64,000 nucleotides of DNA. Origin: Kordia sp. SMS9. Its GTDB lineage: Bacteria; Bacteroidota; Bacteroidia; Flavobacteriales; Flavobacteriaceae. Of the stretch, positions 15,341 through 30,628 are shown piece by piece; within the stretch, counting starts at the first letter, position 1, and every line of letters starts with the position of its first letter. The stretch spans positions 546,465-610,464 of the forward strand of contig NZ_CP031153.1 of assembly GCF_003352465.1 (NCBI RefSeq), given 5' to 3'. A program made the translations under genes and the position numbers. A model generated the notes under the pieces. That model worked only from the letters and a program-made list of their open reading frames with translations. It ran no database searches and was not told the origin of the DNA.

Positions 15341-15452
15341 TTGCGCAGTTTTTTACTTCTTTTGCCAAAGTTCATTGAAACACTTTTGAAATCAGTTTCC
15401 AAAAGATATGTGTGCCAATCATGACACATATAACTTTTAAAAAACAAACATT

Positions 15453-15749
15453 ATGAATTGGAAAATTCAAAAACTACTTGATGGTGAGACCATCATTTCA
15501 AAAGAACCTGGTAATTCTATGTTGCCACTTTTAAAATCGAAGCAACCTGTAAAGTTGCAGCCTATTTCTTGGGAAGATTGCGAAGTGGGTGATATTGTCT
15601 TTTGTAAAGTTCGCGGAAATGTATTTACACATTTAGTGAAAGGAAAAAACGAACGGCGCGGATTGTTAATTGGAAACAATCATGGCAGAATTAACGGATG
15701 GACAAAAAATGTATATGGTAAAGTAATAGAAATATTACCGATGTCATAG
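15453..15749 (+). CDS. Small S24/S26-like serine peptidase domain protein (LexA/UmuD-like catalytic domain without HTH)
   Basis: GNSMLP motif, which resembles the GDSM catalytic-Ser box of LexA/UmuD and signal peptidase I, with downstream Lys residues; 98 aa. Confidence 0.4.
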   Translation: MNWKIQKLLDGETIISKEPGNSMLPLLKSKQPVKLQPISWEDCEVGDIVFCKVRGNVFTHLVKGKNERRGLLIGNNHGRINGWTKNVYGKVIEILPMS

Positions 15750-15947
15750 ACATTCTTCACGTATTCAAATTAACAATCGTAATATTTTGGGCGTTCCCGC
15801 TAAGCGGTCGGGCTTTCCGTAGTCGCTTTTTTGTGTTGTCATTACAACTCAAAAAGAGCTCCAACAAAACGTCAATCCCTAACGCAAACTACCATTTAAA
15901 ATTCAAACTACATTGCCACAAAATAAAAACCTAAAAACACTACGCAA

Positions 15948-15972
15948 AATAATTGCGCACTTCCAATCAATA
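15948..15972. promoter_or_regulatory. Operator-like motif copy 3 (cactacgcaaaataattgcgcactt)
   Basis: Third copy, ~190 nt upstream of rtcB. Confidence 0.5.
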
Positions 15973-16153
15973 TTTGTTTCGGAATTATAAATAAGGTCAT
16001 TTCTATATGACAAAGTAACAACGCTCCGCTACATATTGAAAGTAGCGGAGTTTACAAAAAAAGTATCATGAAATGAGGCATAACGAGTAGTTGACACCTA
16101 CCAAATGACGATGGCGAATTCCATCTGACAAATTAAAAACAATAAAATAGTAA

Positions 16154-17542
<1,389 letters not shown>

Positions 17543-17586
17543 CCTACATTGTCAAAAACTATCTTAAAAATGCACGGAATAAAAAA

Positions 17587-18054
17587 ATGAAAACAATTAG
17601 TAAATTCGTAAAGTTTTTGGGCATAGTTTTTGGCTTTTTAGGCTTCTTATTGGTCCTTTTACTAGTATCTCCTTGGATCTATGTAAAAAACCGAATTTGG
17701 GGACGAAAACTTCGAAAAAAAATAAAAGCTCAATTAAAAAAATACGATGGGAAAATAATATTTCTATATGGAGAATATCACACCTTTGACTTTGAATGGT
17801 ATTTTCAAAAATTTCATCCAGATATCACTTGTTTGCAAGTTCCTAATCATCCTCCAATGGATCCGTTTATTCTGTATTTAAGTGCTAGAAACCCACCTAA
17901 AAGCTTACCACAATTGGTAAAGGTTACAGACGGACACACCTTTAAAAAAACACACTATTCGTCATTCAAATATTACATACGAAAACAGAAAGATGTCATC
18001 CGTTTTTTTGAACTCATGGAGCGATCTATTAAAAATTTACAAGAAATCGAGTGA
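17587..18054 (+). CDS. Hypothetical membrane-anchored protein
   Basis: ORF track; N-terminal TM (FLGIVFGFLGFLLVLLLV); no recognisable catalytic motif. Confidence 0.45.
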   Translation: MKTISKFVKFLGIVFGFLGFLLVLLLVSPWIYVKNRIWGRKLRKKIKAQLKKYDGKIIFLYGEYHTFDFEWYFQKFHPDITCLQVPNHPPMDPFILYLSARNPPKSLPQLVKVTDGHTFKKTHYSSFKYYIRKQKDVIRFFELMERSIKNLQEIE

Positions 18055-18068
18055 AAAATTAAATCACC

Positions 18069-18782
18069 ATGACCAAAAGAAGCAGAGGAAAAGAAGGAAG
18101 TGACGACCGTTTATTTGGCGATCCAAAAATGCAGTCAAAAATGCGAGAAGCCATCAAAGACTTGTCGTATTTATTGAGCAGAGGATTCTCTGAAAAATCG
18201 TCATTGGCATTGGTTGGAAATCGATATAAGCTCAACAATCGCCAACAACGTGCCGTTCAAGGAATGAGTGAAGCAAGTCACAAACTCGAAAAACGTGCAG
18301 CGAACTGTTTATTGCCAAATCAATTAGCAGAAAAGGAAGTCTATATAGACGGTTTTAATGTATTAATCCTATTAGAAAGTGCGTTGTCGGGCGCGTATCT
18401 CTTCAAAGGTTTAGATGGTTGCTATCGTGATATATCAAGCGTGCATGGAACGTATAAAAAAGTAAAACAAACGCCAGAAGCCATTCAACTCATTGCAAAC
18501 TTTCTACAAGAAAACAAGGTCAAAAAAGCTACTTGGATCTTTGACAAACCTGTTTCCAATAGTGGACGACTAAAAACAATGCTACGAGAATTCGCAGACG
18601 AGCATCAACTCCATTGGGAAATCATTTTAGACAATAATCCTGACAAATTTATCGCAGAAAGTAATCAAATCGCCATCAGTTCGGATGCTTGGATTTTAGA
18701 CAATGCAACAACTTGGTGCAATATGGTACGACAGATTGTAGACGAACACATTCCACAGAAAAATGTAGTGGAATCTGAATAA
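18069..18782 (+). CDS. Hypothetical protein (operon partner of RtcB island)
   Basis: ORF track; 237 aa; no motif I can assign with certainty. Confidence 0.45.
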   Translation: MTKRSRGKEGSDDRLFGDPKMQSKMREAIKDLSYLLSRGFSEKSSLALVGNRYKLNNRQQRAVQGMSEASHKLEKRAANCLLPNQLAEKEVYIDGFNVLILLESALSGAYLFKGLDGCYRDISSVHGTYKKVKQTPEAIQLIANFLQENKVKKATWIFDKPVSNSGRLKTMLREFADEHQLHWEIILDNNPDKFIAESNQIAISSDAWILDNATTWCNMVRQIVDEHIPQKNVVESE

Positions 18783-18786
18783 AAAA

Positions 18787-18812
18787 TTACTACGCAAAAA
18801 TAATGCGCACTT
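18787..18812. promoter_or_regulatory. Operator-like motif copy 4 (ttactacgcaaaaataatgcgcactt)
   Basis: Fourth copy, upstream of the nucleotidyltransferase operon. Confidence 0.5.
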
Positions 18813-19154
18813 ACAAATCATCTTTGAACTCAGAAATACAAAACAACGAAACATATAAAATCATGCAAACTAAAAAAGGTACCGTGTATTAAGTTTTAAC
18901 AAATAACTTAATACAAAATGAAAACACGTGAGAACAAGAAATTTTACAATTTCAAGGAAGTTCACAAACGCAAAAAAAGAACACGAGCTGCAAAAATTCA
19001 CTGGAAAAGCAACACTTGGGAATACCGTCGCTTTTTGCGTCAACAATACCGAACAAAATGCAAAGTCATTCTCAGAAAACAGCTCGAAGGACACGAAATA
19101 GAATTCCCAAGATTCCGAAAAACACTTTGGTGGGAATGGTAAAAACATTTAAAA

Positions 19155-19900
19155 TGAAAACAAGAATACTAGAAAAATTAGCAGAAATAGAACGCGATAA
19201 AAATATCGAAATCTTATTCGCTGTCGAATCAGGAAGCAGAGCTTGGGGCTTTGCTTCTCCCGATTCCGATTATGACATTCGTTTTGTGTACAAACACAAA
19301 ACCGAATGGTATTTGAATCTTTGGGAACAAAAAGATACGATTCAATTCATGACGGAAGACGAATTAGACGGTTCTGGTTGGGACATTAAAAAAGCATTAA
19401 AACTGCTCTCAAAATCGAATGCGTCTTTATTGGGCTGGCTCTTCTCTCCTATTGTGTACAGAAGTTCGGGAACGTTCTTGGAAGAAATGAAAATGGTCGC
19501 TGAAAAGAATTTCAATCCTGTTGCAGGTTTCTTTCACTATCACAGCATGAACAAAAATTTTGAAGAAACGTTAGACACCAATGAAATGACTTTAAAAAGT
19601 TATTTCTATACCATACGAACTGCTTTGTGTGCCAATTGGGTTTACAAAAAGGAAACGGTTCCGCCAGTAAATTTTCGTGAATTATATCCGCTTTTAGATG
19701 AGGAATCTAGTGCTCTTTTGGATGAATTAATTCTGCTAAAAAGCAACGAAATTGAAAAAAGTAATGCGCCTGTGGAGGCTTCTTTAATAAATTTGGTAAA
19801 AAGGATTGTTGCAGAAAACAACGAGATCAAAAATGATCTTAAAAACGTGAAACCAAACCCTGAAGATTTTAATACGCTATTTATAAAAACAATACAATGA
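19155..19900 (+). CDS. Pol-beta superfamily nucleotidyltransferase (COG3541-like), paralog 1
   Basis: ESGSRAWGFASPDSDYDIRFVY matches the G[GS]x9-13 D-x-[DE] pol-beta NTase signature. The start is placed at the internal Met MKTRILEK (the ORF track begins at 19016). Its stop overlaps the next gene (ATGA). Confidence 0.6.
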
Positions 19901-20958
19901 CACTCTCAGAACTCAAGAAATCAGGACATATCATCTTTGAATGTATCAGTGGAAGTCGCGCGTACGGATTAGACACGCCAACTTCCGATACCGATATTCG
20001 TGGTGTTTTTGTATTGCCAAAATCCATGTATTATTCACTCGACTATATTGATCAAATTAATGATGAAACGAATGATACTGTATATTATGAATTGCAAAAA
20101 TTCATTTCATTATGCGCCAAAAATAATCCTAACATCTTAGAATTACTGAATGTTTCGGAAGATTGTATTTTATACAAAAATCCGTTGTTTGACAACATTA
20201 AATTAGATACATTTCTATCCAAACAATGCGAAAAATCGTTTGCAAACTATGCGTTTACTCAAATCAAAAAAGCACGTGGATTGGAAAAGAAAATAGTCAA
20301 TCCAATGGAAAAAGAACGCAAATCTGTGTTGGACTTTTGTTTTGTGTATGAAAATGACACTTCCATTCCTTTAAAGGATTTTTTGATTGATAAAAACATC
20401 CAACAAGAACACTGTGGTATTGCAAACATTCCGCATCTAAAAGATTGTCACAACCTATATCACAACGAAAATATTCCCTACAAAGGAATCATCAAAAGTG
20501 AACTTGCAAACGAATTGGCATTGAGTTCTATCCCAAAAGAAGAAACGACAATTGGAATGCTATTTCACAATAAAGACAGTTATTCTAGTTATTGCAAAAA
20601 GTACAAGGAATATTGGAATTGGGTCGAAAAACGAAATGATGAACGTTACAAAACAACGGTTTCTCATGGAAAAAATTACGATTCCAAAAACATGATGCAT
20701 ACGTTTCGTTTGTTGCGCATGGCAAAAGAAATTGCAACTGAAAAAACGATTCACGTAAAGCGCCCAGATCGTGAATTTTTATTAGATGTAAAACATGGAA
20801 AATATGAATATGATGAATTGGTGACTTGGGCAACAGAATTAAAAACAGAATTGGAAAGACTATATGCAAATTCAACATTGCCAAAACGTCCTGATATAGA
20901 AAAAATTAATAATTTACTCATTAACATTAGAACCGATTTTTACACTAAAAACCCGTGA
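19897..20958 (+). CDS. Pol-beta superfamily nucleotidyltransferase (COG3541-like), paralog 2
   Basis: ISGSRAYGLDTPTSDTDIRGVFV is the same NTase signature; it is translationally coupled to its neighbours. Confidence 0.6.
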   Translation: MTLSELKKSGHIIFECISGSRAYGLDTPTSDTDIRGVFVLPKSMYYSLDYIDQINDETNDTVYYELQKFISLCAKNNPNILELLNVSEDCILYKNPLFDNIKLDTFLSKQCEKSFANYAFTQIKKARGLEKKIVNPMEKERKSVLDFCFVYENDTSIPLKDFLIDKNIQQEHCGIANIPHLKDCHNLYHNENIPYKGIIKSELANELALSSIPKEETTIGMLFHNKDSYSSYCKKYKEYWNWVEKRNDERYKTTVSHGKNYDSKNMMHTFRLLRMAKEIATEKTIHVKRPDREFLLDVKHGKYEYDELVTWATELKTELERLYANSTLPKRPDIEKINNLLINIRTDFYTKNP

Positions 20959-21662
20959 ATGCTCTTCAAAACATAGCATATTCCTGTAAAAGCTTCCTTT
21001 CGGAGGAATGGAAAGCAACATATAGCGCGTTTTTACAAAACGAACACTTGTCTGTACTAGCGCGCAATACGTTTGCCTTGTATAAAAATGATGTTGAGAA
21101 ATTTCACGGGAAACCCAATTTTGAAGAAGAAATTATTCCAAATCTCACGGAAGCATTTGCAATCTTTAAAGAACAATTCAAAACTTTAAAAAAGTATAAC
21201 TTTGAAGATAATAAACTAACGCGTAAAGCGTTTGCCACTGCCGTAGAACGGACAAACTTTGAACACATTTTGATACTTTCCGGACAACGATTGACCTCAG
21301 CGAGTTTGCAAGACGAAAACGCAATTCCGCCATTGCAATACGCATTGATGAAACACAGTTTTGAAGCACACAACGATCAAATTTCAAAAGCAGTCCGCGC
21401 TTGGGAAAAACATGCGCAACGCTCTACGGAAAGTTTCTGGGGAACCGTCAAAGGAAGTGCCGAAGACAAAGAAAAATATGTACAAAAATTGATAACACAC
21501 ATCCTAAAACACAAAACCTGGTGGAATGTATTTACACATTACAAACACGAAGTTGTATATGAAGCTAGAATTGCAAGCGGACACGGAATTCGCTGGAAAA
21601 AAGCTACCTTAGAACTCATCGGATTTTTAGAACCTTTTGAAGATTTTGACAATGGAACATAA
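20955..21662 (+). CDS. Hypothetical protein
   Basis: ORF track; overlapping start/stop with neighbours suggests the same operon. Confidence 0.45.
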   Translation: MNALQNIAYSCKSFLSEEWKATYSAFLQNEHLSVLARNTFALYKNDVEKFHGKPNFEEEIIPNLTEAFAIFKEQFKTLKKYNFEDNKLTRKAFATAVERTNFEHILILSGQRLTSASLQDENAIPPLQYALMKHSFEAHNDQISKAVRAWEKHAQRSTESFWGTVKGSAEDKEKYVQKLITHILKHKTWWNVFTHYKHEVVYEARIASGHGIRWKKATLELIGFLEPFEDFDNGT

Positions 21663-23019
21663 CGAACAAACCTATAATTTTTCGCAACAAGAATGGGAAA
21701 CGTGCTTAAAAGTATTGCATGCGCTCAAAGAAAATCCGTTTGAAAATCCAGATAACAAACAATTTGGAACACTCATCACGAAGATTTCTAAAAAGGCAAA
21801 AAAGGCAAATCGGAAAGATACATTTTCAACCAAAAGACAAGAAGATTTAGAAACGATCTTACATAGTGAAATCTCTAAAAATGCTTTGCAAAACAAGACC
21901 ATTTATCAAGACGAAAAAAAATCGCAACACTCGTTTACAAAACTGAATGTTCCAAAAAATTGTTATTGCTGTAATACTTCGTTCACTTTTGCACATTCGT
22001 TCTACAACCGTTTGTGTCCAACCTGCGCTGAACTCAATTATGAAAACCGGTTCAAAAATCTCGATCTATCAAATCGCAAGGTAATCTTAACAGGCGGACG
22101 TGTAAAAATTGGCTATGCAACAGCGTTGAAAATGCTACGTTTTCATGCACATGTAACGGTAACAACACGTTTTCCTGCAACTGCTTTAGACTTATTTCGC
22201 CAAGAAAAAGATTATGAATCTTGGAAAGATAACTTAGTCATATACGGATTGGATTTACGAAATCTAAAATCGGTTGAAAACTTCATTCACTATTACAAAA
22301 ACACACACAAAACGCTCGATATTCTCATCAATAATGCAGCGCAAACGATCAAATATACCGACCAATACTACACACCATTAATTGCGAGAGAACAACAATT
22401 GGCATTAGAATTTTCTGGTCAGCAAAACTTAATCGCGAATGAAACACCTGTGGCGAATGTGAAATTATTGAACAATCATGTAGAAAAAAGTTTCTTGGAA
22501 CTCAATCGTTTTGGACAACCTATTGACACTCGTTCAAAAAATAGCTGGAATGCTACTTTGGAAGAAATCTCCATGCAGGAATTGATTGAAGTCAACTTGA
22601 TCAATCAAATTTCGCCGTACTTTATCATCAAAGAATTGTTGCCATTGTTGAAAAATTCTAGCTTTCCTAAAAAACACATCATCAATGTCACTTCTTCGGA
22701 AGGACAATTCAGTTACAACAACAAAACTATGTTTCATCCGCACACCAATATGACCAAAGCGGCTTTAAACATGATGTCGTTAACCGCGGCAAAAACCTTT
22801 GAAAAAGATAACATTTACATGAACGCTATAGATGTTGGTTGGGTTTCTACAGGAGCAAACGAAACCTTACGAAAACAACAATTTGAAAAAGGATACATTC
22901 CGCCACTTGATCCTGTGGATGGCGCTTCAAGAATCGTACATCCTATCTATGAAAATGAAGAAAACAATACTATCTTTACAGGAAAGTTATTAAAAAACTA
23001 CTGTATTGTAGATTGGTAA
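21637..23019 (+). CDS. SDR-family oxidoreductase with N-terminal Cys4 zinc-ribbon-like extension
   Basis: Rossmann TGGrvkIGyAtA motif plus a downstream NNAAQ; the N-terminal region has CYCC...CPTC. Confidence 0.65.
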   Translation: MKILTMEHNEQTYNFSQQEWETCLKVLHALKENPFENPDNKQFGTLITKISKKAKKANRKDTFSTKRQEDLETILHSEISKNALQNKTIYQDEKKSQHSFTKLNVPKNCYCCNTSFTFAHSFYNRLCPTCAELNYENRFKNLDLSNRKVILTGGRVKIGYATALKMLRFHAHVTVTTRFPATALDLFRQEKDYESWKDNLVIYGLDLRNLKSVENFIHYYKNTHKTLDILINNAAQTIKYTDQYYTPLIAREQQLALEFSGQQNLIANETPVANVKLLNNHVEKSFLELNRFGQPIDTRSKNSWNATLEEISMQELIEVNLINQISPYFIIKELLPLLKNSSFPKKHIINVTSSEGQFSYNNKTMFHPHTNMTKAALNMMSLTAAKTFEKDNIYMNAIDVGWVSTGANETLRKQQFEKGYIPPLDPVDGASRIVHPIYENEENNTIFTGKLLKNYCIVDW

Positions 23020-23034
23020 AAGCTAAAAGATACA

Positions 23035-23109
23035 GCAGTAGTTCAAAAGAGTTGGAAGAACACTACCTTGCAAAGGTAGAGGATGCGGGTTCGAGTCCCA
23101 TTTACTGCT
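23035..23109 (+). tRNA. tRNA-Cys(GCA)-like
   Basis: Acceptor GCAGTAG/TTACTGC, anticodon arm CTACC-TTGCAAA-GGTAG (anticodon GCA), T-loop GGGTTCGAGTCCC. The T-stem has one mismatch and the D-arm is atypical. Confidence 0.45.
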
Positions 23110-23149
23110 CTTTAAAAACAATAATAAGAAATTTTGATACGCAAAGATT

Positions 23150-23410
23150 GATGGTTTAATTGGAAGAACACCTAGCTCATCACTGGAAGTGCGAGTTCAA
23201 ACCTCGCTCAATCTTTGCTCAAAAAACGGCAGTGATAGTAGCTCAATTGGAAGAGCATCTGCTCAACCAGCAGAGGGTTTTGAGTTCAAATATCAAGTAT
23301 TGCTGCCTATTAAAAATCATTACGAGAGTTGGTAGTTTAACTGGAAGAACACCTGGCAACCACTCAGGAAGTGCGAGTTCAAACCTTGCGCAACGCTCGT
23401 ATCACAATGG
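23150..23410 (+). pseudogene. Three degenerate tRNA-like repeats (paralogous to flanking tRNAs)
   Basis: Units share D-arm-like GGTTTAAYTGGAAGAACA and a perfect T-arm GCGAGTTCAAACCTCGC. Anticodon arms and acceptor stems pair poorly and carry 4-nt extras between the T-stem and the acceptor strand. Confidence 0.4.
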
Positions 23411-23412
23411 CA

Positions 23413-23485
23413 ACGGTAGTAGCTCAGTTGGAAGAGCGCATGCCTGTCACGCATGAGGTCGCGGGTTCGAATCTCGTTTACTGTT
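23413..23485 (+). tRNA. tRNA-Asp(GUC)
   Basis: D-arm GCTCAGTTGGAAGAGC, anticodon arm CATGC-CTGTCAC-GCATG (GTC), T-loop GGGTTCGAATCTC. The acceptor pairs with two G-U wobbles. Confidence 0.6.
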
Positions 23486-23507
23486 GCCTATTTAAAAAAA
23501 GAAACAC

Positions 23508-23732
23508 ATGAAATACGCATTAGAAAAAACCACCAATACACATATTTTGGAAGCCGAAAACATAAAAGTTCGCCATACAGTTGGTAGTACGCAAGTATTA
23601 CAAATTGAAGGTGAAGGAATGGTGTCACATGGAGAACACGGAATTATAAAAACAGACAGTAAATATGTGATTAAGTATGTGCAACAAGAATTTAATCCTG
23701 TAACACGCATCATTGAAAATGCTTTTGATTAA
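23508..23732 (+). CDS. Hypothetical small protein
   Basis: ORF track; 74 aa; directly upstream of the 676-aa ORF. Confidence 0.3.
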   Translation: MKYALEKTTNTHILEAENIKVRHTVGSTQVLQIEGEGMVSHGEHGIIKTDSKYVIKYVQQEFNPVTRIIENAFD

Positions 23733-23744
23733 GAGTTTAGGATC

Positions 23745-25775
23745 GTGAAAACCATAAAAATACATACTGAAGAAGATATTTCAAAAATCACGGAAACGGA
23801 TACTATTCGATTAGAAATATATCTAAAAAATGCTGTAATCCCCATTCAGGAAATGAGTGGCGAATTGTACGTACGCGCTGTTGGTTGTAAATTTCCAAAC
23901 TTAACAACCGTTTTCGGATTGGTTTCTTTAGATGCGCATAAAGCGGAATTGCCAAAACTCACAGAAATTCAAGGAAATTTGAACATTCATGGGAATGATA
24001 TTTTACTTCCTGAATTAAGCAAAATATTAGGTGATTTTAAACAACATCATCCTGTAGAATTACCCAAACTCAAAATAATCACGGGAAAATCCAATGTGCC
24101 AAAAAGTTGTATCCCAAAAAAATGGCAACGTGTTCTTTTTCAAAAGGATTTAGATATCTTGGAACAAGGCGAATTATACAATCTTAGTATAGAAAATTGT
24201 AATGTTACTTTGCGTAGTCATGTAATTTATGGAAACTTGAAAACTATCAATGCAAAAGTAAACTGTCCTAACTTAGAAACAATTTATGGTGATTTCACAC
24301 TTGAAATCTCTGATAAATTCAGTAATTATACAGCAAAACCAAGCTTAAATTTTGATGACATTGAAAGTGGAAAAGCAGCAAGTCTTTTTGAAAGTCCCAA
24401 GCTTAAAACAATTCATGGAAGCTGTGAAATCAACACAACAAAACCTATAAATATTGATGTTGAAAACGTTAACGATAGAATTGAAATTCAAAAAGGAAAA
24501 GCTTCTTTTAGAAAACTTCTTAAAACGGGAGCGCTAATTGTAAGAGAAAAATCAAAAATGGTTTGTGATGCGCTCACAGAAACAACAAAGAAACTCGTAA
24601 CGCACCAAGAAAGTTACCTAAGTGCAAAATCACTCTATAAAATTGGAAAACATTGTGGTATCGGTTCCAAAATTGATATTCCGAATTTACTTTTTATTCA
24701 GGGAGATTTATCTTTAAGCCAACGCAATTATAATGATCCAAAAATTAAGCATGAATTCAAAAGTCTAAAATATATAGGTGGAAAAATAACGTTTGATGAA
24801 TTCTGCTCATTTCCTAAATTAGAAGAAGTAAAAGGTGTTTGCAACATAAGAATGTTAAAAAACATCTCTGCTGCAACAGCACCAAAATTAACGTATATAG
24901 ATACCTTAGATATTGGTGAACAACAAAATTCTCGAATTAGAGAACGACTTCCAAGTCTGCAAAAAGTAGGAACAATGATGTATCAAGACAATACTGAACA
25001 TCTAGTTATTGATCATTTTTTTCATACTATAGAAAATCGAAATACAAAATTCATCATCTCAAAGGAATCTTTCTCAATATGGAATAGTTTAAGTGAAGAT
25101 AAATTACCTATACAAAGACTAATTGCTATTTTAAAAATGCGTCATATTTCTTTTGATAATTTTTACACACGTGAAGTGACTCGCGAATGGAAGTATGAAA
25201 GCAATCCGTCTTTTGATGAAATAATTCGTTCCATCAAAAAGAAATGGAAAAAGGTTACGCCATTAACGTATGAAGATATATTTCAACTTCATGACTTTTC
25301 TTTGCGAAGATTTGCGTTTAACTATGTTGGTGTAGACACTTTTATGCAAAAACTAAAAGCAAAACGAATTGCTACAGAAGGAATTGAAGTCAATCATATT
25401 CAATATGATGAATTAGGAAATAAAAAAATGGTGCAAAAACACAACGTTTTTGAAATTTACGAAGCCGATTTTAACAAAGTGGAACACTTTAGATCTTGGC
25501 GCGGAGAAAAACAATTGCGTTATGCTGTAAAATGTTGGTGTACTTCTACCCATCAAGAACATTGGATTTGGATTGAAGAAGCATACAAGAATGATCCACT
25601 TTCTGCGATTGCTTCTACATTTCGCGTGCATGAAAATGTGATTCCATATATTTCTTGTCTAAAGCGTCAAGGAGATATTTTATTATGTGAAATGAAACGA
25701 AATGTACGACCTGAAGGAACAATTAGAGCCTTAACCAAAGAAGAATATTTTGGCCTGCTTGTTGCAGAATCCTAG
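23745..25775 (+). CDS. Hypothetical 676-aa protein with leucine-rich-repeat-like N-terminal half
   Basis: ORF track; repeated LPKLxEIxGNLNIxGN-type units; no signal peptide. Confidence 0.55.
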   Translation: MKTIKIHTEEDISKITETDTIRLEIYLKNAVIPIQEMSGELYVRAVGCKFPNLTTVFGLVSLDAHKAELPKLTEIQGNLNIHGNDILLPELSKILGDFKQHHPVELPKLKIITGKSNVPKSCIPKKWQRVLFQKDLDILEQGELYNLSIENCNVTLRSHVIYGNLKTINAKVNCPNLETIYGDFTLEISDKFSNYTAKPSLNFDDIESGKAASLFESPKLKTIHGSCEINTTKPINIDVENVNDRIEIQKGKASFRKLLKTGALIVREKSKMVCDALTETTKKLVTHQESYLSAKSLYKIGKHCGIGSKIDIPNLLFIQGDLSLSQRNYNDPKIKHEFKSLKYIGGKITFDEFCSFPKLEEVKGVCNIRMLKNISAATAPKLTYIDTLDIGEQQNSRIRERLPSLQKVGTMMYQDNTEHLVIDHFFHTIENRNTKFIISKESFSIWNSLSEDKLPIQRLIAILKMRHISFDNFYTREVTREWKYESNPSFDEIIRSIKKKWKKVTPLTYEDIFQLHDFSLRRFAFNYVGVDTFMQKLKAKRIATEGIEVNHIQYDELGNKKMVQKHNVFEIYEADFNKVEHFRSWRGEKQLRYAVKCWCTSTHQEHWIWIEEAYKNDPLSAIASTFRVHENVIPYISCLKRQGDILLCEMKRNVRPEGTIRALTKEEYFGLLVAES

Positions 25776-26460
25776 ATATCAATAGGGTTAGAATAATTAT
25801 AAATAACACCCAAAATTTGGAAGAAACCCTATAAAAATGACATATTTGCCACACTAATGACAAAAAACTATTTACATATAGCCTCAATTTGCCTGAAAAG
25901 TCAGGACACAAATCGCGGAATGGTTGAACCATTTTGGCGAAACGAGACGCTTTATGTACATTTTTATCAGTGAAGTTTATGATGAAATAACACAAAAATT
26001 ATACAAATAGTAAAGCGTCCAAGGAATTGGGCGCTTTTTTTATGAAAAAAAATTAAAAAATGTTCAAAGCATAATCAAATAGAAACATAAAAGGTTGAAA
26101 CAAAAAGCAATTGAGAGACAGACAGTTGGCAAAAAGTTCAATATCCGTTGCATAACGGACAGGAATTCCCATATCTAAATCTAAACATAACTACTTGATT
26201 ATCAATAAAATAAATTTAAAAAAATTTGTGTAATCAAAAAATCGTTTTCATATTTGCAACGTCAAAAACAAAAAACGACAATATAAAAAACATCATGAAA
26301 TATACGATACATCACATATCCGCCTTAGCAAACATTCTCCGATCACTGGAAAATTGCAGCTTGTTTGTTTGGGAACAGAAGGGAGATTTTATGTATAGAA
26401 AAAAATGGGAGTATGATAAAGATACGTTACTATGATCGTAACTATATAGAAACTTTATAA

Positions 26461-26492
26461 AAGCATCTCCCAAAAAAGAGATGCTTTTTTTA
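26461..26492 (+). terminator. Rho-independent terminator
   Basis: GCATCTC...GAGATGC hairpin followed by a T-run, immediately before the tRNA array. Confidence 0.6.
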
Positions 26493-26513
26493 TGGTTTTT
26501 ATTTAACAAAAAA

Positions 26514-26588
26514 TGATGCATAGCTTAGTTGGTTAGCCCAGAGGCGCTTTTAACGTCAAGGTCGTGAGTTCGAACCTCACTGCGTCAA
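26514..26588 (+). tRNA. tRNA-Lys(UUU)-like
   Basis: Acceptor TGATGCA/TGCGTCA, anticodon loop CTTTTAA, T-arm GTGAG-TTCGAAC-CTCAC. The anticodon stem has a mismatch. Confidence 0.5.
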
Positions 26589-26594
26589 CAAAAA

Positions 26595-26681
26595 GGAAGA
26601 GCAAGCCAATTGGCGGTGGCCACGGTCTTGAAAACCGTTCGGAGTTAATGACTCGTGTGGGTTCGACTCCCACTTCTTCCG
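26595..26681 (+). tRNA. tRNA-Ser(UGA), type II
   Basis: Acceptor GGAAGAG/TTCTTCC, anticodon arm ACGGT-CTTGAAA-ACCGT, long variable arm, T-arm GTGGG-TTCGACT-CCCAC. Confidence 0.6.
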
Positions 26682-26691
26682 CAACTAATTT

Positions 26692-26778
26692 GGAGTGTAG
26701 GTAAATATTGGTTCGTTACGCTTGACTGCTAATCAAGTCCGTTTAACCGCGGTGAAGGTTCAATTCCTTTGCGCTCCG
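26692..26778 (+). tRNA. tRNA-Ser(GCU), type II
   Basis: Acceptor GGAGTGT/GCGCTCC (G-U wobbles), anticodon arm CTTGA-CTGCTAA-TCAAG, long variable arm, T-loop GGTTCAATTCC. Confidence 0.55.
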
Positions 26779-26787
26779 CAACATATT

Positions 26788-26914
26788 GGGGATATAGTTT
26801 ACCAAGCTAAAACAGTGGGTTTAACTCGATGATACCTATTTGATATTATGGTCTCATTGAATTCGCAAGCTTATTTGCTTCTCGCAGCACGGAGTGCAAG
26901 TCTCCGTATCTCCA
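26788..26914 (+). other. Oversized (127-nt) tRNA-like element
   Basis: Good acceptor GGGGATA/TATCTCC, D-arm GTTT-ACCAAGCTA-AAAC and T-like arm CGGAG-TGCAAGT-CTCCG, but ~50 extra nt in between with no clean anticodon arm. The T-loop has G at position 55. Confidence 0.35.
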
Positions 26915-26920
26915 CAACAT

Positions 26921-26992
26921 GATATTATAGCTCAATGGCAGAGCAAAGACCTGTTAAGTCTGAGGTTGAAGGTTCGAATCCTTCCGATATCG
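26921..26992 (+). tRNA. tRNA-Asn(GUU)
   Basis: D-arm GCTCAATGGCAGAGC, anticodon loop CTGTTAA, T-arm GAAGG-TTCGAAT-CCTTC. 3' end ...CGATATC-G-CA. Confidence 0.6.
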
Positions 26993-26996
26993 CAAC

Positions 26997-27069
26997 GACA
27001 AGGTGGCTGAATGGCAAAGGCAGCAGTCTGCAAAACTGTTTTGTATGAGTTCGAATCTCATCCTTGTCT
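26997..27069 (+). tRNA. tRNA-Cys(GCA)
   Basis: Acceptor GACAAGG/CCTTGTC perfect, anticodon arm GCAGT-CTGCAAA-ACTGT, T-arm ATGAG-TTCGAAT-CTCAT. Confidence 0.65.
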
Positions 27070-27117
27070 CAATGATTATGTAGTATCAAACTTGTTTGAA
27101 TAGTATATAATTTACTT

Positions 27118-27200
27118 GGAAGTGTTGAGAAATTGGTTGGCTTGCCAGACTGTAAATCTGGTCTCTTCGGAGCGTGTAGGTTCGAGTCCTACTACTTCCA
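27118..27200 (+). tRNA. tRNA-Tyr(GUA), type II
   Basis: Acceptor GGAAGTG/TACTTCC, anticodon arm CCAGA-CTGTAAA-TCTGG, long variable arm, T-arm GTAGG-TTCGAGT-CCTAC. Confidence 0.65.
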
Positions 27201-27206
27201 CAACAC

Positions 27207-27278
27207 ACGCTTGTGGTGTAACTGGTAGCATGTACGTCTCCAAAACGTACGGTTGAGGTTCAAATCCTTGCGGGCGTG
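27207..27278 (+). tRNA. tRNA-Trp(CCA)
   Basis: Anticodon arm TACGT-CTCCAAA-ACGTA, T-loop GGTTCAAATCC. The acceptor pairs with two G-U wobbles. Confidence 0.55.
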
Positions 27279-27282
27279 CAAA

Positions 27283-27440
27283 ATATAGCTATGGTGTAAT
27301 GGATAGCACATGAGATTTAGCTCACATGTTATTCATTATAGATTAAGCAGTTCGTGAATGTGAAAACATTTCTAACCTCATAGTCTAAGTTCGAAATGCT
27401 TTGCATTCATGAGTTCCTATTTATTAAGATAAGAACAAAA
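27283..27440 (+). pseudogene. Degenerate tRNA-Arg-like 5' half followed by ~100 nt of unassigned structured sequence
   Basis: Starts ATAGCTATGGTGTAATGGATAGCACA (same acceptor/D-arm as the tRNA-Arg at 27888), but the anticodon arm is broken and no intact T-arm/acceptor follows. Only an AAGTTCGAAATGC T-loop-like fragment is present. Confidence 0.35.
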
Positions 27441-27467
27441 CGAACTAATCTTAGTAGCTATACAAAT

Positions 27468-27539
27468 AGTATCGTGACTCAACGGTAGAGTGCTCGACTG
27501 TCTCTCGAGAAGTTGCGGGTTCGAATCCCGTCGGTACTG
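27468..27539 (+). tRNA. tRNA-Asp(GUC)-like (pyrimidine at position 37)
   Basis: D-arm ACTCAACGGTAGAGT, anticodon arm CTCGA-CTGTCTC-TCGAG, T-arm GCGGG-TTCGAAT-CCCGT, acceptor AGTATCG/CGGTACT. Confidence 0.5.
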
Positions 27540-27545
27540 CAAAAT

Positions 27546-27618
27546 CTGGGAATAGAACAATTGGCTGTTTACTCGCCTTGGACGCGAGAGGATGTAGGTT
27601 CGAATCCTGCTTCCCAGA
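27546..27618 (+). tRNA. tRNA-Pro(UGG)
   Basis: Acceptor CTGGGAA/TTCCCAG perfect, anticodon arm CTCGC-CTTGGAC-GCGAG, T-arm GTAGG-TTCGAAT-CCTGC. Confidence 0.6.
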
Positions 27619-27709
27619 CGACTAAATCAAAGCAAGCTTGCTTGAATTTGATTTGCAGTGAGGCATAGCAGGAACACTTTGCAAATCCTGCTTCTGAAAC
27701 AAATAAAAT

Positions 27710-27781
27710 GCTCCGTTCGTCTAATGGCTAGGACACCTGCCTTTCGAGCAGATAATAAGAGTTCGATTCTCTTACGGAGTA
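27710..27781 (+). tRNA. tRNA-Glu(UUC)
   Basis: Acceptor GCTCCGT/ACGGAGT, D-arm GTCTAATGGCTAGGAC, anticodon loop CTTTCGA, T-arm AAGAG-TTCGATT-CTCTT. Confidence 0.55.
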
Positions 27782-27787
27782 CAAAAT

Positions 27788-27860
27788 GCAGAGGTGGCGG
27801 AATGGCATACGCAGCTGTCTTAGAAGCAGTTTTTTGAGAGTTCGAATCTCTCTCTCTGTA
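27788..27860 (+). tRNA. Atypical tRNA: anticodon UAG (Leu) on a 73-nt type-I body
   Basis: Acceptor GCAGAGG/TCTCTGT (G-U wobbles), anticodon arm GCTGT-CTTAGAA-GCAGT, 5-nt variable loop, T-arm GAGAG-TTCGAAT-CTCTC. Bacterial tRNA-Leu normally has a long variable arm. Confidence 0.4.
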
Positions 27861-27887
27861 CAAACGCAATCTTGAAAGGAGTGCAAC

Positions 27888-27959
27888 AAGTTTATGGTGT
27901 AATGGATAGCACATTGGCCTACGAAGCCAAGAGTATAGGTTCGAATCCTATTAGACTTA
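27888..27959 (+). tRNA. tRNA-Arg(ACG)
   Basis: D-arm GTGTAATGGATAGCAC, anticodon arm TTGGC-CTACGAA-GCCAA, T-arm ATAGG-TTCGAAT-CCTAT. Confidence 0.6.
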
Positions 27960-27965
27960 CAATAT

Positions 27966-28037
27966 TGATCTGTGGTGTAACGGTTAGCACACGAGACTTT
28001 GACTCTCGGGGAAGAGGTTCGGTTCCTCTCAGATCTA
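27966..28037 (+). tRNA. tRNA-Gln(UUG)
   Basis: Anticodon arm CGAGA-CTTTGAC-TCTCG perfect, T-arm AGAGG-TTCGGTT-CCTCT, acceptor ...GATCTG/CAGATCT. Confidence 0.6.
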
Positions 28038-28041
28038 CTAT

Positions 28042-28137
28042 AGCGATATAGCTTAATTGGTAAAGCACTGGTCTCATAAGCCAGAAGTTGAAATGCCTGT
28101 ACTGAACTTGATTCAGTATCTAAGATTTCTATCGCCA
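28042..28137 (+). pseudogene. tRNA-Met/Ile2(CAU)-like gene whose T-loop is replaced by a ~29-nt palindromic (REP-like) insertion
   Basis: Acceptor AGCGATA, D-arm GCTTAATTGGTAAAGC, anticodon arm CTGGT-CTCATAA-GCCAG, then T-stem GAAAT/ATTTC enclosing GCCTGTACTGAACTTGATTCAGTATCTAAG in place of the 7-nt T-loop. It is a paralog of the intact tRNA-Ile that follows. Confidence 0.5.
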
Positions 28138-28145
28138 CTAAAAAT

Positions 28146-28218
28146 AGTGATATAGCTTAACTGGTAAAGCGTCAATCTGATAAGTTGGCAGATGAAAGTT
28201 CAAATCTTTCTATCACTA
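28146..28218 (+). tRNA. tRNA-Ile(GAU)
   Basis: Acceptor AGTGATA/TATCACT perfect, D-arm GCTTAACTGGTAAAGC, anticodon loop CTGATAA, T-arm GAAAG-TTCAAAT-CTTTC. Confidence 0.65.
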
Positions 28219-28225
28219 CAAAAAT

Positions 28226-28298
28226 GGTGACTTTAGTTTATTTGGTAAAACGCCTCACTGTGAATGAGAGGAACAGGGTTCGATCCCCGAAGTCACCC
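28226..28298 (+). tRNA. tRNA-His(GUG) with encoded G-1
   Basis: 5' GGTGACTT..., anticodon loop CTGTGAA, 3' ...AAGTCACC-C (G-1:C73 pair typical of bacterial tRNA-His). The T-stem is imperfect. Confidence 0.55.
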
Positions 28299-28303
28299 AA
28301 CCA

Positions 28304-28427
28304 GGAATAATGACAGAGTTGGTCAATGCGATGGATTGAAATGAGTTTACGAATTCATCGAAACCTATTTAATAAAATAGAATTCTATGAGATAAACCCA
28401 GAGATATAGGTTCGAATCCTATTTATT
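28304..28427 (+). other. Oversized (124-nt) tRNA-like element
   Basis: Acceptor GGAATAA/TTATTCC perfect and T-arm ATAGG-TTCGAAT-CCTAT, but ~50 extra nt internally, including a GAATTC-centred palindrome; no clean anticodon arm. Confidence 0.35.
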
Positions 28428-28533
28428 CCACAAAAGAAATGTAGTTTAAAATTAAAATAGCGAGCTAGTATCTCGAAGATGCAAGTAAAGTCTTGCCATT
28501 TCTCAAATTAAAAATTAATAAAAACAAACAGTC

Positions 28534-28848
28534 ATGAGACCAGATGTATTACAAAGGTTCTTTTACAGAACTGAAGATTCAGGAAGATTCCTTGTGACTT
28601 CAAAAAGAACAGGAGTCACCTATTTTGTAGAACCAATAGCTACTGGAAAGCCTGCTATTTTATGGGGCGATGTAGATCCAGCTACAAATAAATTGACGGG
28701 AGATTATGGAACTAAAAGAAGAGGCGCCGTTTTGCCAGAAGATTCTCTGATTACTAAGGAGAATGGTTTTCAAAATATTTCCACATTCAAAGGAAGTCCT
28801 TTCGGAGAAATTGATCGCAGAGATCGATTGTATGAAGATAAAATTTAA
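28534..28848 (+). CDS. Hypothetical protein
   Basis: ORF track; 104 aa; between the tRNA array and the RNA ligase. Confidence 0.4.
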   Translation: MRPDVLQRFFYRTEDSGRFLVTSKRTGVTYFVEPIATGKPAILWGDVDPATNKLTGDYGTKRRGAVLPEDSLITKENGFQNISTFKGSPFGEIDRRDRLYEDKI

Positions 28849-28884
28849 TAATAAAAAAGTAATCTGAAAAGATTTAAAAACGTC

Positions 28885-28954
28885 ATTCTGAACTTGATTC
28901 AGAATCTCACTCTACTAATTTTCAATTTATGATGAGAAACCGAATCAAGTTCGG
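28885..28954. repeat. Two adjacent REP-like palindromes (attctgaacttgattcagaat and ccgaatcaagttcgg), opposite orientation
   Basis: 15-nt palindromic cores related by compensatory changes. The same core occurs at 28100-28118 (inside the tRNA-Met-like gene) and at 42354-42372. Confidence 0.6.
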
Positions 28955-29006
28955 CTTGACGAAAATCCAACTTTTTAGGAAATTCTAAAAAAACAAAAAA
29001 GAAATC

Positions 29007-30014
29007 ATGTTTAAAAAATATAATAGTATCGAAAATACCTACCGTGAAAAGGCAACCGAACAAGTATATCTTCACGGGTATGGAAACGATGTATTTGTGG
29101 TACAAGAAAAAGTACATGGCGCTAATTTTTCTTTCATTACGGATGGAGATACAATTAGAGTTGCCAAACGTACATGTCTAATTGCAGAAGATGAAAACTT
29201 CAACAATCACAGATATGTTTTACACAAATATGAAAAAGCAATTACAGGGCTTTTCAAACGTGTAAAGAACGATTTTCCAGAAACAGAAATGATCACTGTT
29301 TTTGGTGAAATTTTCGGAGGAAGCTATCCGCATGCGGAGGTAGAAAAGATCGATGGAATGGTTCGCATTCAAAAAGGTGTTTTTTACAGTCCAGAAAATG
29401 ACTTTTACGCGTTTGATATTTGTATCAATCACACGCAATATCTTGATGTTACCATCGCGAACACATACTTTGAAGCAACAGGAATGTTGTATGCAAAAAC
29501 ACTTTTTGCAGGAACCTTTAGCGAATGTATGGCATATCCAAATGCATTTGAATCAAAAGTTCATGAATGGCTACATCTTCCAAAGATTGAAGACAATGTT
29601 TGTGAAGGAACCATCATCAAACCATTAACTAGCAAGCGTTTTGGAAATGGACAACGTGTTATTTTCAAAAACAAAAACGAAAAATGGTCTGAAAAGTCAC
29701 ATGAAAAACGATCAAGAGTTTCAAAGCCAAGTGCAATAGGAATGCTTTCACATACTGAAAAAGAATTGATGCACACGCTTTTGGGCTACGTGAACGAAAA
29801 TCGTTTGATGAATGTACAAAGTAAGCTTGGAGAGTTTTCACCAAAACAAACGGGAAAAACGATCGGATTGCTTGCCAAAGATGCACTAGAAGATTTTGTA
29901 AAAGATCATGAAAATGATTGGAATAACGTACAAAAAGAGCATCAAAAAGTATTAACAAAAATACTGAACAAAGAAGCAGTTACTGTCGTAAAAAAAGTAC
30001 TTCTTTTTAGGTAA
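29007..30014 (+). CDS. ATP-dependent RNA ligase, T4 Rnl2-like
   Basis: Nucleotidyltransferase motif I EKVHGANF (compare T4 Rnl2 EKIHGTN), motif IV VCEGTIIKP, motif V VIFKNKNEKW; 335 aa. Confidence 0.7.
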   Translation: MFKKYNSIENTYREKATEQVYLHGYGNDVFVVQEKVHGANFSFITDGDTIRVAKRTCLIAEDENFNNHRYVLHKYEKAITGLFKRVKNDFPETEMITVFGEIFGGSYPHAEVEKIDGMVRIQKGVFYSPENDFYAFDICINHTQYLDVTIANTYFEATGMLYAKTLFAGTFSECMAYPNAFESKVHEWLHLPKIEDNVCEGTIIKPLTSKRFGNGQRVIFKNKNEKWSEKSHEKRSRVSKPSAIGMLSHTEKELMHTLLGYVNENRLMNVQSKLGEFSPKQTGKTIGLLAKDALEDFVKDHENDWNNVQKEHQKVLTKILNKEAVTVVKKVLLFR

Positions 30015-30023
30015 TGTAGAAAT

Positions 30024-30060
30024 GACTGTCCAAGCTTCTATTCTTGGACAGTCTTTATAA
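30024..30060 (+). terminator. Rho-independent terminator after RNA ligase
   Basis: GACTGTCCAAG...CTTGGACAGTC hairpin followed by TTTAT. Confidence 0.55.
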
Positions 30061-30142
30061 AAGATACAAACAATGTGTTCAAGTAAAAACAGCCGCAAAC
30101 CAAAACTGTTGGCTGTAGTTAACTTGATATAAAATTAAACAG

Positions 30143-30628
30143 ATGAAAATAACAATGAACAAGTGGCGAAACTTTTCAGGCAAAGTGTTCAATGAACCCA
30201 TAACTACACTTGTTGAGAATGCCATTGTAAAAGAACAAAAAGCTGGTCACAGATTGAAAATCTATGTGGGTTCGGATTCACAAGCCTATAAAACACATGT
30301 AAACTATGGTACTGTCATAGTGATTCTTAGAAAAGGAAAAGGTGGTTTTATGTTTATCAAAAACGAAAAAGGAACCACTAAAATAGGACTAAAAGAGCGT
30401 ATGCTAAGAGAGGTAGCACTATCCGTAGAAACAGCCTACCGCATTTGTGACCTATTGGAAAAATACAATATTGAATTGGAAGTTCATGCAGATATCAATA
30501 CAGACTCAAAATTTGAATCAAATGTGGCACTTAAAGAAGCGATGGGATATATCATAGGAATGGGCTTTGCATTCAAGGCAAAACCGTATGCTTTCGCAAG
30601 TTCTTCTTGTGCAGATAGTATTGTCTAA
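30143..30628 (+). CDS. Hypothetical protein (possibly RNase H-like YkuK/DUF458 fold)
   Basis: ORF track; YVGSDSQ motif is reminiscent of YkuK-family proteins; the assignment is uncertain. Confidence 0.4.
   Translation: MKITMNKWRNFSGKVFNEPITTLVENAIVKEQKAGHRLKIYVGSDSQAYKTHVNYGTVIVILRKGKGGFMFIKNEKGTTKIGLKERMLREVALSVETAYRICDLLEKYNIELEVHADINTDSKFESNVALKEAMGYIIGMGFAFKAKPYAFASSSCADSIV

Follow-up and report, generated by a model that had tools for sequence, protein, structure and literature searches.

Bacterial genomes contain several kinds of short, non-coding, multi-copy repeats, such as MITEs (miniature transposable elements bearing inverted repeats), repetitive extragenic palindromes and bacterial interspersed mosaic elements (REP/BIME), Correia elements, enterobacterial repetitive intergenic consensus sequences (ERIC), and the palindrome-associated transposable elements (PATEs) derived from IS200/IS605 insertion sequences. 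They carry hairpins, lie between genes in either orientation, show filled/empty polymorphism, and are moved by an enzyme supplied in trans. Stable RNA genes can be interrupted as well. The intervening sequence (IVS) of 23S rRNA forms one long stem; RNase III removes it, the cut ends are not rejoined, and the rRNA functions as fragments. Here, we describe a repeat of about 53 bp, termed the class-1 element, which interrupts tRNA genes in a long tRNA array of Kordia sp. SMS9 (contig NZ_CP031153.1, positions 546,465 to 610,464). The whole stretch of 64,000 nucleotides that was analyzed is called the window. Judged by alignment with orthologues, the oversized tRNA-like genes of this array are ordinary array tRNAs plus discrete inserts, which we read as DNA-level, target-specific insertions of a tiny non-coding mobile element.

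Like the MITE- and REP-type repeats, the class-1 element is small, non-coding, dispersed, and hairpin-bearing, and an enzyme acting in trans is proposed for it. It differs from them in having neither terminal inverted repeats (TIRs) nor target-site duplications (TSDs), in measuring only about 53 bp, in its strong site specificity (G^AA; GGTTCG^AATCC, with ^ as the insertion point), and in sitting inside tRNA genes and in the frameshift window of IS3-family insertion sequences. Set beside an IS200/IS605-type PATE, it shows no TIR or TSD and a covarying 5' hairpin; its 3' helix is weak, and its target is loosely defined upstream (G/C at -1). The inserts resemble the 23S rRNA IVS as short extra sequences at the helix tip of a stable RNA gene that are sporadic among strains and copies and not self-splicing. 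Unlike in the IVS, the insert ends are not paired with each other, and the hosts are tRNAs, in which a cut loop needs ligation.

Archaeal tRNA introns of 16-100 nt occupy anticodon, T, and D regions, and related sequences at different positions suggest mobility; they are ligated by RtcB, require a bulge-helix-bulge (BHB) and EndA, and occur in one orientation (PMC4090602). The Kordia inserts are likewise short, lie in anticodon and T regions, and are sequence-related at different positions. However, no BHB is seen by eye, the EndA family (tRNA_int_endo) is absent from Pfam scans of the proteins of the surrounding RNA-repair island, and there are copies in both orientations and outside tRNAs. 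In the T-loop copies, again by eye, a possible 4-bp helix ends at the 5' junction, and no 5' bulge is present. Bacterial group I introns interrupt tRNA anticodon loops including those of Arg-UCU and Leu-UAA, are longer than 200 nt, and are self-splicing by virtue of a catalytic core (bioRxiv 10.1101/2020.01.27.920355). The Kordia inserts also break anticodon loops, but they are 53-55 nt long, and an Rfam search of both strands of 22500-29200 at E≤10 gave no group I intron and no ribozyme (hammerhead, twister, pistol, hatchet, HDV-like).

Long tRNA arrays (L-arrays) are co-regulated with rtcB in cyanobacteria (PMC8421152), and a tRNA-repair role has been proposed for RlaP (PMC12776372). The Kordia array shares with these L-arrays at least 20 packed tRNA genes on one strand beyond the housekeeping set, aberrant members or pseudogenes, frequent indels between species, and linkage to or co-regulation with an RNA ligase (rtcB); such arrays are reported from Bacteroidetes, too. 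The spacers of the Kordia array are typically 2-10 nt, and the unit is conserved with variable content across related genomes. Judged from its genes alone, the array is a member of this known class. It differs in lying in an island with RtcB, Rnl2, and two RlaP, and in that many members are interrupted by a defined repeat of about 53 bp, of which searches of PMC8421152 gave no mention. Nor did we find in the literature a description of such inserts in tRNA genes.

The interrupted genes and their inserts are as follows.

26788..26914, + strand: tRNA-Ala(UGC) with interrupted anticodon loop, 127 nt; one 54-nt gap in the orthologue alignment
26823..26876, - strand (opposite to the tRNA): class-1 element copy in the Ala anticodon loop, 54 bp; nhmmer 26874-26821, E=1.9e-8
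27285..27462, + strand: tRNA-Arg(UCU) with interrupted anticodon loop and T-loop; two 53-nt gaps in the orthologue alignment
27319..27371, - strand: class-1 element copy in the Arg anticodon loop, 53 bp; nhmmer 27371-27317, E=6.3e-9
27394..27446, + strand: class-1 element copy in the Arg T-loop (GTTCG^AATC), 53 bp; nhmmer 27394-27448, E=1.4e-7
28042..28137, + strand: tRNA-Met(CAU) with enlarged T-loop; Rfam tRNA 47.2 bits, orthologues 73 nt
28094..28118, + strand: class-2 insert in the Met T-arm, 25 bp; GCCTGT and a 7-bp hairpin (TACTGAA CTTGA TTCAGTA)
28304..28430, + strand: tRNA-Phe(GAA) interrupted 3' of the anticodon; Rfam tRNA 42.9 bits and orthologue alignment
28339..28393, + strand: class-1 element copy in the Phe anticodon loop, 55 bp after GAA; nhmmer 28340-28394, E=1.7e-4

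The comparison set consisted of the orthologous tRNA arrays of 8 other Kordia genomes; further loci are named by our handles (L numbers). At the positions of the oversized genes, the sister arrays hold 73-nt tRNA-Ala(UGC), tRNA-Arg(UCU), and tRNA-Phe(GAA). ARAGORN skips 26788-26914 and 28304-28430 and leaves gaps there. Ala, Arg-UCU, and Phe had thus seemed to be missing from the array because tRNA finders miss interrupted genes. An earlier note on this DNA had described two of the long genes (26788-26914 and 28304-28427) as having 7-bp acceptor stems, D- and T-arms, and extra nucleotides, all of which we confirm (about 54 extra nt), with the second gene ending at 28430 with its discriminator base. 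The same note saw no clean anticodon arm in them; the orthologue alignment places both arms, each split by an insert.

The Ala gene matches the intact 73-nt tRNA-Ala of L007, L009, L010, L012, and L013 from end to end, save for one 54-nt gap. The insert boundaries are ambiguous by 3 nt (TTT), the anticodon arm is split as GTGGG...CTCGC, and in-silico excision restores the tRNA; the window allele has A37 replaced by U. The Arg gene consists of three exon pieces around two 53-nt inserts (intact references: L009, L012, and L014), and the double-insert allele is also found in L007. Its first 22 nt are 100% identical to tRNA-Arg(ACG) at 27893-27914, so the Arg-like start given for this gene in the earlier note holds; its limits (27283-27440) do not, as the gene occupies 27285-27462 and ends 22 nt further downstream, and what had looked like a dissolution into about 100 nt of other structure is a full Arg(UCU). 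The Arg anticodon-loop site is also filled in L007, L010, Dokdonia (L022, L023), and Psychroserpens (L036), and the T-loop site in L007, L008, and L036.

For Phe, the orthologues are intact at 73 nt in 8/8 Kordia genomes, and the Rfam tRNA model (gathering score 29) places a 56-nt insertion directly 3' of UUGAA. The covariance-model check proposed earlier thus succeeds for Phe; at E≤10, it gives no match for 26788-26914 (Ala) and 27285-27462 (Arg). The Phe allele of the window carries G10>A in the D-stem, which turns G10-C25 into an A.C mismatch, and is 1 nt shorter at the 3' junction (GT>A). Therefore, a normal 7-nt anticodon loop cannot be restored from it. In Met, the Rfam alignment shows 32 nt where a T-loop region of 9 nt is expected, and the T-stem is preserved as GAAAU/AUUUC. 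The enlarged T-loop of Met and a tRNA-like gene at 28435-28504 are absent from the earlier note.

Four of the five inserts of the window are copies of one repeat family of 53-55 bp. We defined this class-1 family from an alignment of 18 copies in a common orientation and built a hidden Markov model (HMM) from them; nhmmer detects copies on either strand with E-values of 1e-4 to 1e-11. From 5' to 3', a copy consists of AAAT, a short hairpin, ATTCAYGARCNCC, a variable part rich in A/T that includes AAATAG, and RYGARCT, with AA following. On the 64-kb window, the HMM finds exactly 4 copies, all within the 2-kb array, 2 on the + and 2 on the - strand. In a separate repeat search of the window, the Phe insert was matched by the Ala insert as an inverted repeat (I1, 78% over 27 nt) and by the Arg T-loop insert as a direct repeat (D12). 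The element is short, non-coding, and multi-copy, and shows filled/empty polymorphism.

The 5' hairpin covaries, with a canonical pair at the first variable position in 92/108 distinct copies versus 45.7 expected. RNAalifold gave no structure on the raw alignment, in which the hairpin had been misaligned, and hand analysis backs the 5' hairpin alone. The proposed 3' helix (P3) is weakly supported, the variable middle folds no better than shuffles, and a wobble test for the folding strand shows no bias (G.T 61 vs A.C 64). Terminal inverted repeats do not occur in the 18-copy alignment, as the 5' end (AAATGC...) and the reverse-complemented 3' end (AGCTCAC...) are dissimilar. A target-site duplication was not found either: the flanks of filled and empty IS3 abut directly, and the tRNA sites show only AA(A/T) redundancy. 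The dinucleotide AA is present at both junctions.

Insertion takes place between G (or C) and AA. Over the flanks of 108 copies, G/C is found at -1 in 82, A/T at -4 in 95, and AA followed by a further A (...CTAA then A) in 80. The main target is the T-loop coding sequence GGTTCG^AATCC, and all T-loop copies (17/17) are oriented forward. Half of the anticodon-loop copies are reversed, namely those in Arg-UCU, Ala, Gly, and Glu, and those in Phe, Ser-UGA, and Tyr are forward. In element orientation, the targets in Arg-UCU (GGTTAG^AAATC) and Gly-UCC (GATTGG^AAGTC) are antisense-strand look-alikes of the T-loop target. The reverse-oriented copies arise because such look-alikes sit on the opposite strand of anticodon stem-loops. 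Orientation thus tracks the target sequence and not the direction of tRNA transcription; therefore, insertion at the RNA level could not yield this pattern. A general preference for hairpin loops was considered as well; it holds at tRNA sites and fails at non-tRNA sites (27/80 vs 143/480, p=0.51).

In the T-loop copies, e.g., at 27387-27446, the element's 3' end (YGARCT) complements the RGTTCG ahead of it, with 6 bp in Arg and 5-6 bp including wobbles in Leu, Lys, Ser, and Tyr. This complementarity may bear on target recognition, and the pattern fails in the anticodon-loop subfamily. The internal ATTCAYGA of the element resembles the T-loop sequence.

Other Kordia species carry class-1 elements in Leu-UAA (four species), Lys, Tyr, Gly, Ser-UGA (two inserts), and Ala (two further species). 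In-silico excision gives back a tRNA for 28 HMM hits, and the doubly hit genes come in addition (Arg in the window, L007, and L036; Ser-UGA in L010; Tyr in L013). In L008, L012, and L017, class-1 copies interrupt tRNAs of a second, smaller array (array A, below). The larger array B is complete in L012 without any class-1 insert; thus, the inserts are not needed.

Copies outside tRNA genes were collected by a pattern scan of metagenome contigs with at least 120 matches; the following figures refer to the matches listed. The HMM confirms at least 75 hits in at least 64 loci. Most of these copies are intergenic, none (0) lies inside an intact open reading frame (ORF) of at least 80 aa, and their orientation is independent of the flanking genes. 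The few tRNA-embedded copies are all in multi-tRNA arrays. Rfam shows no family near the non-tRNA copies. An orientation-dependent RNA motif in untranslated regions was rejected since orientation is unrelated to the flanking genes, and conserved blocks around some copies, first considered as a larger RNA, are really orthologous loci upstream of an MFS transporter gene. The strict pattern gave only two chance matches in IMG/VR, and a consensus search of annotated phages and plasmids gave nothing meaningful.

At no fewer than five loci (at least 5), the element lies within an IS3-family transposase gene, exactly in the orfA/orfB frameshift window. The empty IS3 (L199-L204) reads ...AGCAATCAGCATTTTTTCCAAGAGCGGTCGATG...; the filled IS3 (L195-L198) has identical flanks with 53 nt between TTTTTT and CCAAGAG, so that the flanks of the filled/empty pair are ...GCATTTTTT on one side of the junction and CCAAGAG... 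on the other. In element orientation, the site is CTCTTGG^AAAAAATGC. Filled and empty IS3 lineages are intermixed: among OrfB relatives, those at 86-90% identity are empty, and another filled lineage stands at 84%. This distribution, inferred from sequence identity, points to repeated insertion at the same hot spot, and monophyly of the filled lineages was rejected because their nearest relatives are empty. The insert is 20 nt 3' of the A AAA AAA slippery site and has stop codons in both frames; it ends in GCATTT, and the left flank ends in GCATTTTTT.

A recurrent neighboring enzyme was sought around the non-tRNA copies, and the recurrent neighbors were only host genes, the IS3 transposase (itself a target), and RteC-type conjugative-transposon genes. 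Copies adjoin genes of the RteC family, regulators of Bacteroidetes conjugative transposons, in L090, L103, L115, L137, and L186; the element may travel on integrative conjugative elements. Tandem copies exist as well, with four within 460 nt in L086 (764-1223), three units of about 90-130 nt in L111 and L160, and others in L078, L126, and L145. Each tandem unit of L111 and L160 is followed by a conserved ATAGCCNC...CCAACGCTCA segment.

We consider it probable that a site-specific mini-element inserts at the DNA level and that the interrupted genes are most likely disabled. Its movement would depend on an enzyme acting in trans from a gene at another location. A site-specific recombinase, e.g., a serine recombinase, would agree with the shared AA core and with the subterminal direct repeats (YGARC), and a single-strand HUH transposase with the two back-to-back hairpins. 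No partner TnpA (Y1) turned up in Pfam scans of the 35 window ORFs. The array presumably gathers copies, as it presents a T-loop target about every 80 bp, in genes whose function the housekeeping tRNAs already cover. Decoding should be impossible for a tRNA whose anticodon loop or T-loop is longer by 53 nt, so the interrupted genes would most likely be inactivated alleles that have decayed to different degrees. Among the signs of damage, genes hit twice are common, and positions 37/38 are altered in 3/3 interrupted Ala alleles, versus 0/5 intact ones. Decayed copies, one of the explanations offered in the earlier note, fit as a secondary consequence only (the damaged 3' junction and the D-stem mismatch of Phe) and not as the origin of the long forms.

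The genes around the array form an RNA-repair island at 13545-30628.

13545-14558, - strand: WYL regulator
14709-15260: RNase T-like exonuclease
16157..17542, + strand: RtcB RNA ligase; Pfam PF01139, E=6e-37
18069-18782: DUF434/DUF5616 protein
19016..20958, + strand: two RlaP nucleotidyltransferases; Pfam PF10127, E=2.6e-69 and 1.5e-29
23032..23488, + strand: tRNA array A, 5 genes, several with aberrant anticodon loops; ARAGORN
23745-25775: 676-aa protein between arrays A and B; no Pfam family above cut-off
26514..28504, + strand: tRNA array B, about 24 tRNA genes on one strand; ARAGORN and Rfam; followed by a small ORF and Rnl2
29007..30014, + strand: Rnl2-family RNA ligase; Pfam PF09414 and PF18043
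30143-30628: RNase H-like protein (PF04308)

Several points weigh against insertion of a mobile element that disables its host genes. Pfam scans of the 35 window ORFs turned up no transposase or recombinase for the class-1 element, and without TIR or TSD, the element belongs to none of the defined MITE classes. A copy is closer to those at the corresponding site in other species than to those at other sites of its own genome; therefore, recent intragenomic jumping in Kordia lacks demonstration. Kordia, Dokdonia, and Psychroserpens share the Arg-UCU anticodon-loop copy, and the tRNA stems show compensatory changes. Private substitutions are only modestly higher in interrupted genes (2.3% vs 1.2% in intact genes; 1.5% vs 1.2% without L013, in an underpowered test), and the excess comes mostly from one species. 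In two different right-hand contexts, the filled IS3 has a 100% identical sequence and is thus present in at least 2 copies, which suggests that the insert leaves IS3 function intact, unless the IS was moved in trans. Finally, two RNA ligases and putative nucleases flank the array.

The shared Arg-UCU interruption, the exons that do not evolve markedly faster, and the identical filled IS3 copies also speak for a removal of the inserts from transcripts, which we consider rather unlikely. An island nuclease (the PIN-like DUF434/DUF5616 protein or the RNase H-like protein) or a host RNase would cut where the insert has its base, RtcB or Rnl2 would rejoin the exons, and RlaP would trim or fill. 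The setting is suggestive, as RtcB (16157-17542) and Rnl2 (29007-30014) stand on either side of the array, two RlaP and nucleases are close by, all tRNA-embedded copies found sit in such arrays, and the inserts are confined to loops and leave good cloverleaves upon in-silico excision. However, since the element occurs in both orientations, a sequence-specific machinery would face two unrelated RNA sequences, and intergenic DNA carries the element just as readily, whatever its orientation to genes. The whole array including its spacers is 85-100% identical among Kordia; because the spacers are equally conserved, exon conservation is no proof of function or of selection. The Phe allele is beyond restoration to a 7-nt loop, and BHB (by eye) and EndA (in the Pfam scans of the island proteins) are missing. 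Moreover, tRNA repair accounts for islands with RtcB, Rnl2, and RlaP (PMC12776372; PMC8421152). In a further version, which we hold to be unlikely, the element of about 53 nt would be phenotypically silent by being removed or bypassed in the host RNA: island nucleases and RtcB/Rnl2 would cut and rejoin the array tRNAs, and the interrupted IS3 transposase would likewise stay functional. If true, this would be the first protein-dependent tRNA splicing in Bacteria, and array and island would form a dedicated maturation system, beyond repair alone.

It is very unlikely that the insert-bearing molecules are functional as such, be it as tRNA-shaped scaffolds, as decoys for toxins that cleave anticodon loops or T-loops, or as substrates or regulators of repair enzymes. 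The acceptor, D-arm, and T-stems are retained, the T-stem of tRNA-Met is kept via the compensatory change GAAAU/AUUUC, and the island plausibly answers tRNA-targeting ribotoxins (PMC12776372). Nevertheless, the insert-carrying tRNAs vary by species with none in L012, orientation varies between sites, the element also occurs in non-tRNA contexts including an IS3 gene, and its wobble pairs show no RNA-strand bias. For the deliberate decoy or substitute design that the earlier note envisaged, we found nothing in support. An origin of the long genes by local decay, slippage, duplication, or mis-joining of adjacent tRNAs would find a parallel in the decayed pieces that the array does hold, e.g., 27684-27707, which duplicates the tRNA-Pro 3' end. 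It is extremely improbable, as the insert boundaries are sharp and reproducible with a conserved shared sequence, the family extends to other genera, intergenic DNA, and IS3, and the exon pieces are collinear with single orthologous tRNAs; two adjacent canonical tRNAs can thus be dismissed. The anticodon-loop positions recall tRNA introns, yet we give next to no credence to group I introns, archaeal-type (BHB) introns, or permuted or split tRNAs: 53 nt is far under group I size, no Intron_gpI or ribozyme matches at E≤10, reverse-oriented copies and T-loop copies exist, and the acceptor halves and all arms are in the order of the orthologues. Of the earlier suggestion of intron-containing genes, the intervening sequence stands, given the intact 73-nt orthologues, and an intron of known kind does not, given the missing Rfam match, the two orientations, and the intergenic and IS3 copies.

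The second insert type of the window, the class-2 insert of Met, is also present in Ser-GCU (L010), Asn (L013), Tyr (L013), and Met (L011), and insertions of ~21 nt occur in Ile of L009 and L011. Its hairpin core CTGAACTTGATTCAG is also found at the non-tRNA sites 28888-28902, 28940-28954 (- strand), and 42356-42370, giving 4 matches versus 0.15 expected; it appears to be a dispersed REP-like hairpin.

Three further tRNA genes of array B deserve mention.

27468..27539, + strand: tRNA-Asp(GUC) with U37, loop CUGUCUC; ARAGORN and Rfam
27788..27860, + strand: compact class-I tRNA with anticodon UAG, tRNA-Cys paralogue, 73 nt; Rfam 56.7 bits
28435..28504, + strand: extra tRNA-like gene with anticodon AGU; Rfam 46.1 bits, missed by ARAGORN

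As noted earlier, the gene at 27788-27860 is a compact 73-nt tRNA with anticodon UAG (ARAGORN and Rfam) that lacks the long variable arm: the arm of a class II tRNA-Leu was looked for, and the variable region has only 4-5 nt. It is 80% identical over 59 nt to tRNA-Cys at 27001-27059, and UAG genes of 73-75 nt occupy the same array position in several genera. By this homology, it is a conserved, anticodon-shifted class-I tRNA-Cys paralogue and not a degraded tRNA-Leu. The pyrimidine at position 37 that had been reported for the Asp-like gene is indeed there, namely U37 in CUGUCUC. It is a conserved feature because the gene is identical (72/72) in L007, L008, and L012, and Flavobacterium L040 has the same loop. 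The gene at 28435-28504 has an A/U-rich, reduced D-arm and a 6-nt T-loop; ARAGORN calls its L010 orthologue tRNA-Thr(AGU).

ARAGORN reports 21 tRNA genes, all on the + strand, in two clusters (23032-23488 and 26514-28298); 4 more in arrays A and B were recovered via Rfam or orthology. The gene order is kept in the 8 other Kordia, Dokdonia, Winogradskyella, Psychroserpens, Flavobacterium, and further Flavobacteriaceae, each time directly 5' of an Rnl2 relative; a scan of species-representative genomes gave 67 loci with such a relative. The closest homologues of Rnl2 (81-91%) are from Kordia, where they are named Rnl2. A phage origin, first suggested by the RNA ligase and the tRNA array, was rejected: this Rnl2 is encoded on a Kordia contig of 5.48 Mb, many Flavobacteriaceae have the locus in the chromosome, and a close phage relative was not found. 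Both RNA-ligase classes (3'-P and 5'-P) share one locus with about 29 tRNA genes. The island also contains a 155-aa ORF, a 235-aa protein, an SDR-like 460-aa protein, and a 104-aa ORF. The 676-aa and 235-aa proteins have no significant PDB sequence match and no Pfam family above the curated cut-off, and the former has no NCBIfam or PHROG family. By eye, its N-terminal part is leucine-rich-repeat-like (Pfam gives only a marginal Receptor L-domain match), and its C-terminal domain has ~200 aa. Genes for a HopA1-family protein, a LanC-like protein, and a C-5 cytosine DNA methylase lie further downstream (38032-40342 and 52053-53114); they belong to the normal chromosomal or accessory complement and have no connection with the inserts.

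Array A shows odd anticodon loops (CUCAUCA with C37, UCAACCA, and CAACCAC) and A34 anticodons (AAC and ACC), and the 79-nt gene given as 'Cys' has 80-82-nt 'Val' genes as its counterparts in other Kordia. Between tRNA-Pro and tRNA-Glu of array B lies a 91-nt spacer (27619-27709) that is probably what is left of another tRNA and is conserved in L009, L011, and L012. It includes a 26-nt palindrome (27624-27649) and, at 27684-27707, a copy of the tRNA-Pro 3' end with 79% identity to 27603-27626. The array B alleles form a mosaic. Between the window and L007, identity is 97-100% for most tRNAs, but only 58/73 positions agree in tRNA(UAG), 53/71 in Glu, and 55/71 in Gln, and the intact Ala of L007 is closer to the L008 exons than to the window allele. 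These identities suggest recombination between array alleles.

The tRNA content of such arrays is under-counted, as finders miss interrupted genes. The class-1 element would be a very small site-specific mobile element with no inverted repeats and no target duplication, which prefers a T-loop sequence common to nearly all tRNA genes and also parasitises another mobile element, IS3. This suggests that redundant tRNA arrays are tolerant sinks for a parasite that targets tRNA genes. As the inserts adjoin RtcB, Rnl2, and RlaP, they also bear on whether bacteria can splice intervening sequences other than group I introns from tRNAs.

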